DNA of 64,000 nt from Escherichia coli (GTDB lineage: Bacteria; Pseudomonadota; Gammaproteobacteria; Enterobacterales; Enterobacteriaceae), in NCBI RefSeq assembly GCF_003018255.1, contig NZ_CP027440.1. One strand, 5' to 3'. Positions 7,680-8,375 of this stretch are shown here, in pieces; position 1 is the first letter of the stretch; each line of letters starts with the position of its first letter. The notes beneath the pieces were generated by a model, which was not told where the DNA came from, did no database searches, and saw only the letters and a list, made by a program, of their open reading frames with translations. The position numbers and the translations under genes were made by a program.

Positions 7680-8375
7680 AAAAGTGATCCGTCATGTTAT
7701 CTCGTACAGGCCATGAACACGGCATATTTGTACCGCAAAAAAATATCGGCAATGCCGCCCTAATGGCGGTGAAAATAAAATTACCACTCCTTCATCACCC
7801 CGCATTCTACACTTCAAAATAAATAAGAAAAGGACTTCTTATCGATCGTAAAGAGGGGTATTCTGCAAGCGTTAAATAGATTGTGTGAACCTGTGCAATT
7901 CGCGTCAGGTGTATTATGGCAATAATTTAAATATAGATCTTTTATGTAACTTATTGAATTATACAATAATTTAATTAAACATAAGCTAATCTGATGATTG
8001 CTTGTTTATATATTTGTTTTGTGATTGATTAAGTGGGTATTTTTAAGGAATATCTCAAAAATTATCAAAATGATAATTCAAAAAGGATAAATACAATATT
8101 TATTCATGATTCAGCTTTGGCCATTTTATGGAGGCAATTTGGACTTTGAACAGTTGGGTATGGTTATCCAGATATATATTATTAACTTATTGCTGAATAA
8201 GAGATTTAATGATTTTAAAAATAGTTTTTACGACAACCGTAAATTCTAGCTCGGTTTGTATGTAAAAAATACTGAAAAATGATGCGGTTCCGTGAAGAGA
8301 GCTGCATCTGCCTGTCTGGGATTAACGGCAGGTCATTGTAAGTAGTAATTAACCACGTTAACAAGGAGTTTACAA
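7680..8375. promoter_or_regulatory. AT-rich divergent control region between tssB operon and hcp
   Basis: About 700 bp of very AT-rich non-coding DNA between divergent operons; contains a Fur-box-like AAATGATAATTCA at 8068-8080 and one GATC at 7936-7939. Confidence 0.45.

Follow-up and report, generated by a model that had tools for sequence, protein, structure and literature searches.

The region analysed here corresponds to the t6sP region of the EHEC T6SS-2, a system for which the operon structure has been demonstrated (PMC13141884). Deletion of hns in EHEC raised T6SS transcripts up to 60-fold, with both T6SS operons affected, and complementation lowered them again (Wan et al, 2017, PMC5363993). 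A t6sP gfp/mCherry reporter was likewise derepressed in an hns mutant (PMC13141884). H-NS is also reported to bind the tssB–hcp3 region of EHEC (PMC13141884, with reference to Wan 2017 and Kim 2022), and t6sP is reported to contain several transcription start sites (Kim et al, 2022, PMID 35984617, per PMC13141884). For the T6SS-2 allele of APEC, deletion of hns raised expression of clpV2 and hcp2B, and neither gene responded to fur deletion or iron limitation; this is the sole published test of Fur or iron that we found for a T6SS-2 allele (PMC5874247). Control of an E. coli T6SS by Fur is known for sci1 (T6SS-1) (PMC3145626).

We analysed a window of 64,000 nucleotides from E. coli contig NZ_CP027440.1, focusing on the gap between tssB and hcp. 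Combined with the experiments on homologues, our results make it likely that this gap serves the aspV-adjacent T6SS-2 as its bidirectional promoter and control region, that it is silenced by H-NS, and that the Fur-like motif within it is incidental. A control region of this type is already known and ordinary; the basic picture has been published, and the comparative map presented below leaves it unchanged.

The tssB–hcp gap is long, AT-rich and conserved in its layout

The gap and its flanking genes were delimited using the open reading frame list and the RefSeq annotation of a genome with 100% identity:

7179–7679, minus strand: tssB, which leads the structural T6SS operon (tssB, a small ORF, tssC, tssE and onward)
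7680–8375, no strand: divergent intergenic control region, 696 bp with a GC content of 32.8%, equivalent to t6sP of the EHEC T6SS-2 (identity from PMC13141884)
7856–8281, no strand: AT-rich core, the presumed platform for nucleation and spreading of H-NS; nearly all 200-bp windows starting at 7856 to 8081 have less than 28% GC
8376–8894, plus strand: hcp, which leads the divergent hcp/vgrG/Rhs side

The two flanking genes are thus the first genes of two operons that diverge from a single gap, which is the layout of a bidirectional control region. In the same 100% identical genome, the distal end of the cluster carries a VasL-domain gene (tagged tssA elsewhere) whose annotation records a frameshift. 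The sequence-only reading had described an AT-rich divergent region of about 700 bp between tssB and hcp, and this description was borne out. The GC content of 32.8% compares with 50.2% for the window, and across the 64 kb just 1% of segments of this length (696 bp) are equally AT-rich. The GC minimum among all 200-bp windows (19%) lies inside the gap, at 7912–8111. TpA steps account for 10.2% of the gap versus 4.9%, and A/T tracts occur at 25.9 versus 10.8 per kb, corresponding to an approximately twofold enrichment.

We identified the gap sequence in 2,228 of 5,426 complete E. coli genomes, including O157:H7, at 96–100% identity. Two further alleles occur in other genomes: a B2-type hcp is present in 543, and a state similar to that of locus L002 is represented by 29 genomes in which the match is confined to the hcp-proximal quarter. 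This variable presence is that of an acquired island, and Rhs and IS elements are found downstream of the gap. The region would act as the master switch of the T6SS in about 40% of sequenced E. coli, O157:H7 included.

We compared the gap with 16 related loci from eight genera, collected by a TssB scan of genome contigs (four loci) and by a protein search followed by contig look-ups. All 16 retain a tssB/hcp gap, with a length of 543–757 bp and a GC content of 28–34%. The gap carries no annotated feature, and an Rfam scan of positions 7000–9200 gave no match at E ≤ 1. The longest stop-free stretch in the gap is at most 63 codons, leaving no candidate for a hidden gene. We also considered the ATG at 8106, which lies within a conserved block, as a gene start and discarded it: it has no Shine-Dalgarno sequence, and the lengths and sequences of the reading frames that follow are unrelated across lineages. 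No segment of the gap recurs elsewhere in the window, as a repeat or a mobile-element remnant might.

Conserved -10-like hexamers mark candidate promoters on both strands

Promoter scanning and alignment of the related gaps identified the following elements:

7804–7809, minus strand: candidate tssB -10 element, TAGAAT or TAAAAT, found at the aligned position in eight of eight sequences from five lineages
7831–7845, no strand: conserved block GA(A/G)AAGnACTT(C/T)TT, recognised in the alignments, with its centre near -41 relative to the candidate start of tssB transcription
7859–7866, minus strand: conserved GGTATTCT, a -10-like CAGAAT kept in four of five lineages, which the promoter scan pairs with TTCACA at 7889–7884
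8070–8097, plus strand: candidate hcp promoter from the promoter scan, with -35-like ATGATA, a 16-bp spacer and -10-like TACAAT (8092–8097)
8098–8112, no strand: conserved block ATTTATTCATGATTC, directly downstream of the candidate hcp -10 element (alignment of seven sequences from five lineages)

The scan returned five promoter-like sites in the gap compared with 3.8 ± 2.1 in shuffled sequences. Because such sites are no commoner here than in shuffles, conservation is the basis on which the promoters were assigned. The candidate tssB promoter has no good -35 element; with a start predicted near 7797, its leader would be about 118 nt long. On the other side, the -10-like hexamer occupies the aligned position in all five lineages and has the form GTGACA-16-TATAAT in the L002 allele, whereas a 4-bp insertion in Escherichia albertii breaks the -35 spacing. 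The candidate hcp start is predicted near 8104–8106, corresponding to a leader of about 270 nt. The block at 7831–7845 is a possible activator site, and the B2 allele contains a related AAAAGAACTATTT. Among the 16 loci compared, -10-like hexamers are kept on both strands in all five alignable lineages.

Compared by eye, the sequence around GGTATTCTGCAAG did not fit a sigma-54 -24/-12 motif, TATCAAAATGATA did not fit the IHF consensus, and a CpxR box of the form GTAAA-N4-8-GTAAA did not fit either.

Probable silencing by H-NS

The sequence-only reading had also placed the gap among the acquired promoters that are silenced by H-NS, and the evidence agrees with this. The GC content, the 19% minimum and the enrichment in TpA steps and tracts are all of the kind expected of an H-NS target, and the 96% identical EHEC region is derepressed in the absence of H-NS (PMC5363993) and is reportedly bound by it (PMC13141884).

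The 10-mer TCGATAAATT is reportedly a high-affinity site for H-NS (Lang et al, 2007). We found three 8/10 matches to it in the gap and none better; their density is 4.3 per kb versus 1.3 per kb elsewhere, an enrichment expected from AT content alone.

We propose that the AT-rich core (approximately 7856–8281), being rich in TpA steps and A-tracts, would let H-NS nucleate and spread over two weak divergent promoters of the sigma-70 type. Conservation suggests that transcription of tssB would depend on the minus-strand TAGAAT at 7809–7804, and that of hcp on the plus-strand TACAAT at 8092–8097. With both promoters covered by H-NS, neither operon would be more than barely expressed under ordinary culture conditions unless H-NS is removed or some signal displaces it. 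Placement of the hcp -10 element at 8092–8097 implies that the leader of the hcp mRNA would be long and structured.

The Fur-like motif and alternative readings of the gap

Two overlapping elements near the candidate hcp promoter are relevant to regulation by Fur or by another DNA-binding protein:

8060–8078, no strand: 8-3-8 palindrome AATTATCA-AAA-TGATAATT, the highest-scoring position in the gap for the Fur matrix (10.1 bits); an 8/10 match to the H-NS 10-mer, at 8059, overlaps it
8068–8080, no strand: Fur-like motif AAATGATAATTCA; the register 8066–8084 matches the Fur consensus at 11/19 positions and scores 5.2 bits

For scoring we derived a Fur matrix by EM on 11 Fur-regulated promoters of K-12, which recovered the canonical consensus; in leave-one-out evaluation, true Fur sites scored 9.6–20.9 bits. 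Because Fur sites occur as overlapping clusters with 6-bp phasing (Chen et al, 2007, PMC2189734), we scored phased clusters as well.

We consider it very unlikely that Fur-Fe occupies 8060–8080, across the -35 region of a candidate hcp promoter, and acts under iron-replete conditions as a repressor of the hcp operon and possibly of tssB. The motif on which this idea was founded is present exactly at 8068–8080, as the sequence-only reading had stated, and its AATGATAAT reproduces nine consecutive bases of the consensus core (positions 4–12). It overlaps both the candidate -35 region of the hcp promoter and an H-NS-type motif, so that a protein bound there would be positioned to block the promoter. 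The best register nearby (8060–8078; 12/19, 10.1 bits) scores as high as the weakest true sites (tonB, 10.1; exbB, 9.6), and other enterobacterial T6SSs are under Fur (review, PMC10482370). Moreover, a weak match is formally compatible with binding by Fur, because the real, functional boxes of sci1 match at just 11/19 and 13/19 positions. Against this, the level of similarity is that of chance. Within the gap the consensus is matched best at 8086 (13/19), a level equalled or exceeded in 43% of dinucleotide shuffles; an exact consensus 9-mer is present in 22% of shuffles, and a matrix score of at least 10.1 bits is reached in 48% (P = 0.48), which puts the gap at the shuffle median and not above background. 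The AT-rich control gap yjjP–yjjQ, which is not regulated by Fur, scores higher (11.9 bits). The three-site, 6-bp-phased cluster in the gap scores 20.9 (shuffle P = 0.20) and maps to 8205, not to the motif; real Fur promoters reach 23.9–47.8 and the non-Fur control 25.3. A Fur operator takes the form of a 7-1-7 unit, TGATAAT-n-ATTATCA, or of an array of at least three GATAAT-like hexamers (Baichoo and Helmann; Escolar et al). Read directly, 8060–8078 is ATTATCA-AAA-TGATAAT, in which the half-sites are everted relative to that unit, are separated by a 3-bp spacer, and face outer partners that match at 3/7 positions or fewer; neither the 7-1-7 unit nor an array of at least three hexamers was found there. 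The top-scoring Fur position differs among eight related gaps, and no GATC overlaps the motif as in the Fur-Dam switch of sci1, the only GATC sites of the gap being at 7686, 7844 and 7936. Nor does the scan published for the EHEC region list Fur, and the APEC allele is indifferent to fur deletion and to iron limitation (PMC5874247). We conclude that the Fur-like motif at 8068–8080 is most likely ordinary AT-rich sequence and not a Fur operator. The Fur part of the sequence-only reading is not supported; the general statement that Fur controls an E. coli T6SS is correct for sci1, which is a different cluster. The lead is best read as a composition artefact, and its dismissal spares fruitless iron experiments.

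The palindrome could instead serve a different dimeric regulator, such as a counter-silencer that displaces H-NS at the hcp promoter. The inverted repeat is perfect and coincides with the -35 region of a conserved candidate promoter, its TTATCAAAnTGA is common to E. coli, to E. albertii and to the L002 allele, and the natural signal that activates this T6SS is still to be found (PMC13141884). We nevertheless regard such an operator as unlikely, given that palindromes with 8-bp arms arise in 23% of shuffles, that repeats with 7-bp arms are not significantly enriched (4 versus 1.3, P = 0.10), and that the palindrome matches no known regulator motif. Its symmetry is also restricted to one allele: the arms are kept in the E. 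coli A/B1/E-type allele only, both E. albertii and the L002 allele have a broken palindrome, and none is present in the Citrobacter/Yokenella/Salmonella group. This also weighs against a Fur site at this position. A functionally empty AT-rich spacer left by horizontal transfer, with the promoters within about 100 bp of each gene, would account for the lack of annotation, Rfam matches, repeats and reading frames above 63 codons, and for the centre of the gap being unalignable between distant lineages. This appears very unlikely, as length and GC content are kept in 16 loci of eight genera despite the turnover of sequence, and the conserved blocks lie 100–300 bp away from either gene. The gap also diverges more slowly than synonymous sites (3.6% versus 8.5% at fourfold degenerate sites in the comparison with O157), with six differences in 382 bp in its hcp-side half, and several start sites are reported for the EHEC region (PMC13141884). 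We thus retain an H-NS-silenced bidirectional promoter region as the preferred reading of the gap.

The predicted hcp leader contains candidate hairpins and two GGA motifs

Within the long leader predicted by the H-NS-silenced promoter model, the following RNA elements were localised:

8281–8308, plus strand: predicted hairpin SL1, with arms GATGCGGTTC and GAGCTGCATC around CGTGAAGA (RNAfold and hairpin search)
8310–8333, plus strand: hairpin SL2, recognised by covariation, with arms GCCTGTC and GGCAGGT around TGGGATTAAC and a loop GGA at 8319–8321
8363–8368, plus strand: Shine-Dalgarno sequence AAGGAG of hcp, which includes GGA at 8365–8367 and is invariant in the alignment

Pairing of SL1 is kept in E. 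albertii through G-U and A-U changes. For SL2, evaluated by explicit pair counting on a trimmed alignment, 92.9% of cells in the seven lineage sequences are paired and four of the eight pairs show compensatory changes. Its covariation score was reached by 1 of 500 shuffles, and control positions obtained by sliding pair at 46% or less. The G-U pairs in SL2 are compatible with plus-strand RNA only. RNAalifold yielded no structure when run on a MAFFT alignment of this leader, owing to a one-column misalignment of the stems between lineages. On the other side of the gap, a hairpin in the tssB leader (CCGCC-CTAAT-GGCGG, 7756–7770) was rejected, since it is not conserved and in O157 pairs on the wrong strand only.

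Across 8260–8375, GGA occurs only in the SL2 loop (8319) and in the Shine-Dalgarno sequence (8365). The two motifs are 46 nt apart and so within bridging distance, a pair of sites of the type bound by CsrA, and by sequence they may represent the arrangement that a CsrA dimer uses to block translation. An effect of CsrA on hcp3 is reported at second hand. The joint reading, in which a structured hcp leader of about 270 nt carries a GGA pair of the CsrA-dimer type and the block at 7831–7845 is an activator site, is tentative and, as a whole, rather doubtful. If true, Hcp would be restrained twice, with H-NS acting on the DNA and CsrA on the mRNA. Dual control of this kind could account for the presence of hcp mRNA with next to no Hcp protein in EHEC lacking hns. 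The -10-like hexamers, the block near -41 and the GGA-loop hairpin together provide testable targets in the search for the activating signal and for the post-transcriptional block in EHEC.

Comparison with known systems

The t6sP region of EHEC O157:H7 EDL933 (tssB z0264/hcp3) is the same locus as the gap analysed here: it is also 696 bp long and 96.4% identical (25 mismatches), and shares the gene order and chromosomal site. Hcp is identical between the two and TssB is 98% identical. In all, 27 positions differ, mostly within 7729–7993; O157 shows no change in either the Fur-like motif or the palindrome.

The vipA2–hcp2B region of the APEC/B2 T6SS2 (Ma et al, 2018, PMC5874247; Yi et al, 2019, PMC6534853) occupies the same chromosomal site (about 262 kb) and has the same divergent architecture, with a gap of 702 bp and 33.0% GC. 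Published APEC primers match locus L025 with 0–2 mismatches, confirming this allele. Its sequence has largely turned over, and TssB and Hcp are 55% and 94% identical, respectively; a hairpin with a GGGAUUAA loop is found at the same place as here. H-NS represses the APEC/B2 allele, which responded neither to loss of fur nor to iron limitation (PMC5874247). The fragment upstream of APEC hcp2B on which CpxR-P binding depends has no recognisable counterpart in the window.

The sci1 (T6SS-1) promoter of EAEC has AT-rich, Fur-like 19-mers that match at 11/19 and 13/19 positions, numerically like the motif in the gap (Brunet et al, 2011, PMC3145626). However, it belongs to a different cluster, is a different promoter, and has no sequence relation to the gap. 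Binding of Fur was established for sci1 by FURTA, EMSA and competition, with a box that overlaps the -10 element and GATC sites that overlap the boxes (PMC3145626). In contrast, the motif in the gap has no GATC nearby, matches at the level of chance, and has a related allele that is independent of Fur.

The Salmonella SPI-6 T6SS follows the same logic as the gap described here, in that an acquired T6SS is silenced by H-NS acting on an AT-rich promoter (Brunet et al, 2015, as summarised in PMC10482370). The Salmonella locus in our set (L017) is likewise divergent at tssB/hcp (TssB 75% and Hcp 97% identical) and carries the conserved blocks too.

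Organisation and composition of the tssB-hcp gap

The gap lies in a complete type VI secretion cluster of the E. coli chromosome, adjoining the yafV-fadE region. The segment spanning 7600–8450 is 100% identical to E. coli strain JNE23-011, and 2228 of 5426 complete E. coli genomes, O157:H7 among them, carry the gap itself at 96–100% identity and with no feature annotated inside it. The gene layout is as follows.

7179–7679, minus strand: tssB, first gene of an operon with tssC, tssE, tssF and tssG that continues to tssM
7680–8375: tssB-hcp gap, 696 bp
8376–8894, plus strand: hcp, followed by vgrG and Rhs genes
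9104–11212: vgrG, downstream of hcp

The GC content of the gap is 32.8%, compared with 50.2% in the window, and only 1% of 696-bp segments across the 64 kb are equally low. The lowest 200-bp GC content of the window (19%) falls within the gap, at 7912–8111, which bears out the description of this region in the sequence-only reading as extremely AT-rich. Both TpA steps (10.2% versus 4.9%) and A/T tracts (25.9 versus 10.8 per kb) are approximately doubled in the gap.

Three further features of the cluster were observed. A 68-residue open reading frame between tssB and tssC (6938–7144, minus strand), annotated as hypothetical, looks like a duplicated tssC fragment because of its weak resemblance to residues 1–26 of the TssC/VipB N-terminal domain (PF05943, E = 0.043); a small gene at this position is also present in O157 and in the Salmonella locus L017, and is absent from the more distant loci L018–L024 and from the rare E. 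coli allele L002. A hairpin resembling a strong intrinsic terminator (AACAGCATCCGGC...GCCGGATGCTGTT with a T run, 8903–8937) begins 9 nt past the hcp stop codon and is the counterpart of “region I” in the h3R element of EHEC (PMC13141884). The VasL-domain gene, which lies distally in the structural operon and past the left end of the window, is annotated as frameshifted in the 100%-identical genome (L001, 624–2034), and the T6SS of this strain may therefore be degenerate.

Conservation across related loci

We compared 16 related loci, from E. coli (three alleles), a Citrobacter-labelled genome bin (L004), E. albertii, C. youngae, Yokenella, Salmonella (three lineages), Superficieibacter, C. 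farmeri, two Enterobacter and Lelliottia. The gap of L004 is almost identical to that of the window. In all 16 loci tssB and hcp are arranged back to back, separated by 543–757 bp of 28–34% GC, despite a central sequence that could not be aligned across distant lineages. This T6SS lineage has thus conserved both the length and the composition of the gap, which would be expected if the gap serves as an H-NS platform.

The tssB and hcp sides of the gap seem to differ in evolutionary history, because Hcp proteins are 94–100% identical where the adjoining TssB proteins share 55–78% identity (L002, L006, L007, L017 and L025), and 97–100% identical in the lineages with 60–78% TssB identity; the pattern would arise either from recombination at the gap or from Hcp being very strongly constrained. 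Relative to O157, 3.6% of gap positions differ, compared with 8.5% of fourfold degenerate sites in tssB and hcp, and the hcp-side 382 bp hold only 6 of the 27 differences, consistent with constraint on this half of the gap.

In E. coli, this T6SS and its control gap come in three distinct allelic forms. The window's type is found in 2228 genomes, and the B2/APEC allele occupies the same aspV-side site in 543 genomes. The rare allele, represented by L002, sits at a different chromosomal position and probably accounts for 29 genomes in which the match is limited to the quarter of the gap nearest hcp.

Candidate promoters and the hcp leader

Conserved blocks were drawn from five alignable lineages. 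Together with the candidate promoter elements and the two hairpins predicted in the final ~95 nt upstream of hcp, they are listed here.

7809–7804, minus strand: candidate tssB −10 element TAGAAT/TAAAAT, in 8/8 sequences, without a −35 element
7831–7845: conserved block GA(A/G)AAGnACTT(C/T)TT, in five lineages, centred at about −41 from the candidate tssB start
7859–7866: conserved block GGTATTCT
8092–8097, plus strand: candidate hcp −10 element TACAAT/TATAAT, followed by ATTTATTCATGA
8281–8308: first hairpin, GATGCGGTTC...GAGCTGCATC, just upstream of the second
8310–8333: second hairpin, GCCTGTC [TGGGATTAAC] GGCAGGT, with GGA in the loop

Class II activator sites are usually centred near −41; the 7831–7845 block resembles no recognised regulator motif. 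The promoter tool pairs the candidate hcp −10 element with ATGATA at 8070–8075 (GTGACA-16-TATAAT in the L002 allele), and it follows that the Fur-like motif discussed below would overlap the −35 region of the best-conserved candidate hcp promoter. A 4-bp insertion in E. albertii disrupts the −35 spacing of this candidate, and promoter-like sites identified by the tool in the gap are not more numerous than in shuffles.

The position of the second hairpin is shared by seven lineage sequences whose stems differ in sequence, the B2 allele version being ACCCGTCG [GGGATTAA] CGACGGGT. In this small sample, with a hand-trimmed alignment, 92.9% of cells pair, both sides have changed in 4 of 8 pairs, and the covariation score was matched by only 1 of 500 shuffles, with slid controls pairing at ≤46%. 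Its G-U pairs are compatible only with plus-strand RNA, that is, hcp mRNA. In E. albertii the first hairpin stays paired by way of G-U/A-U changes; in other lineages its place is taken by a different hairpin.

Only two GGA motifs occur in 8260–8375, one in the second-hairpin loop (8319) and one, 46 nt away, in the Shine-Dalgarno sequence (8365, within 8363–8368). A loop GGA combined with a Shine-Dalgarno GGA is the classical two-site CsrA layout. As a lead from sequence rather than a result, the two may form a CsrA two-site operator, with the hairpin as its putative upstream site. This would fit the CsrA repression of hcp3 that is reported second-hand for EHEC, as well as the puzzle that EHEC hns mutants make hcp mRNA and little protein; the EHEC paper mentions the Shine-Dalgarno-proximal motif only (PMC13141884).

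The Fur-like motif is at chance level

The sequence-only reading had singled out a Fur-box-like motif, and AAATGATAATTCA is indeed present exactly at 8068–8080, its AATGATAAT matching nine successive bases of the Fur consensus. What did not stand is its significance, which shuffles, matrix and phasing all place no higher than chance. The consensus is matched at 11/19 positions in the proposed register (8066–8084), at 12/19 in the best nearby one (8060–8078) and at 13/19 at best in the gap (at 8086); at least 13/19 was reached by 43% of 1000 gap shuffles that preserved dinucleotides, and 22% of shuffles contain an exact 9-mer of the consensus. We then scored the gap with a symmetric 19-bp matrix, derived by EM from 11 classical Fur-controlled K-12 promoter regions (fepA-fes, fepD-entS, fepB-entC, fhuA, cirA, fiu, fecI, tonB, exbB, fhuF and ryhB), which recovers the textbook Fur consensus GATAATGATAATCATTATC. 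In leave-one-out scoring, true sites reached 9.6–20.9 bits (median 15.6). The weight-matrix scan, which had been proposed as a check, came out negative for Fur in the gap, with a maximum of 10.1 bits (8060–8078), 5.2 bits in the proposed register, an average shuffle maximum of 10.3 bits and P(max ≥ 10.1) = 0.48. The yjjP-yjjQ gap of K-12, an H-NS-silenced, AT-rich, non-Fur control of similar size, reached 11.9 bits. The top matches of the whole window (13.0–13.5 bits, e.g., GATAATTATTTCCATGATA) lie outside the gap at 19214–19241, in AT-rich DNA flanked by the ISAs1-family transposase genes found downstream of the Rhs genes.

Direct repression of the EHEC-type gap by Fur is the rival reading, and it retains a slight probability because functional Fur boxes can be weak, as in sci1. 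Genuine Fur operators consist of clustered sites with 6-bp phasing (PMC2189734); the three-site phased score of the gap was 20.9 (shuffle P 0.20), located at 8205, away from the proposed motif, versus 23.9–47.8 for real Fur promoters and 25.3 for yjjP-yjjQ. The 8060–8078 segment is a perfect 8-3-8 palindrome, AATTATCA-AAA-TGATAATT, of a kind found in 23% of shuffles. It contains both Fur half-site sequences but in swapped order, ATTATCA-nnn-TGATAAT versus TGATAAT-n-ATTATCA for Fur, and neither half-site has a proper outer partner. The palindrome is broken in E. albertii and the L002 allele and missing from the Citrobacter/Yokenella/Salmonella group, and the top Fur match differs in position among eight related gaps. 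We consider direct Fur repression very unlikely.

Comparison with characterised T6SS promoters

Fur control of some E. coli T6SS promoters, also invoked in the sequence-only reading, is documented for sci1/T6SS-1 of EAEC (PMC3145626) and APEC (PMC5874247; see also the review table in PMC10482370), a different cluster from that of the gap. The sci1 Fur-Dam switch has a GATC at its Fur motif, whereas there is no GATC near the motif at 8068–8080, the only such sites in the gap being 7686, 7844 and 7936. For T6SS2 of APEC, clpV2 and hcp2B were unchanged by iron limitation or fur deletion and increased upon hns deletion (PMC5874247). The published APEC primers fit the window poorly and fit L025, the second allele at the same chromosomal site (543 genomes), with 0–2 mismatches. 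This negative Fur experiment therefore concerns a homologous allele rather than the exact sequence of the gap, and Fur independence has been demonstrated for the APEC allele only. Regulation data have been published on different alleles, so pooling them needs an allele check first.

In EHEC EDL933 the gap corresponds to the “unknown bidirectional promoter” t6sP of the T6SS-2 cluster (PMC13141884). The EHEC cluster is near-silent in vitro; its T6SS transcripts rise up to 60-fold after hns deletion, an effect undone by complementation (PMC5363993). H-NS binding and several start sites between hcp3 and tssB are reported by Kim et al. (2022), as cited in PMC13141884. A gfp/mCherry t6sP reporter was derepressed in an hns mutant, and no medium consistently activated the t6sP promoters (PMC13141884). 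H-NS repression, reported H-NS binding and two divergent transcription units come from work on the EHEC sequence or the APEC allele, and the present analysis contributes the composition, the conserved architecture and the chance-level Fur match. The AT composition and the hns-mutant derepression in the 96%-identical EHEC sequence uphold the earlier assignment to the H-NS-silenced, acquired promoter type, in which H-NS would nucleate on and spread over the AT-rich core. The gap is, with good confidence, the H-NS-silenced bidirectional promoter region of T6SS-2 that is already known.
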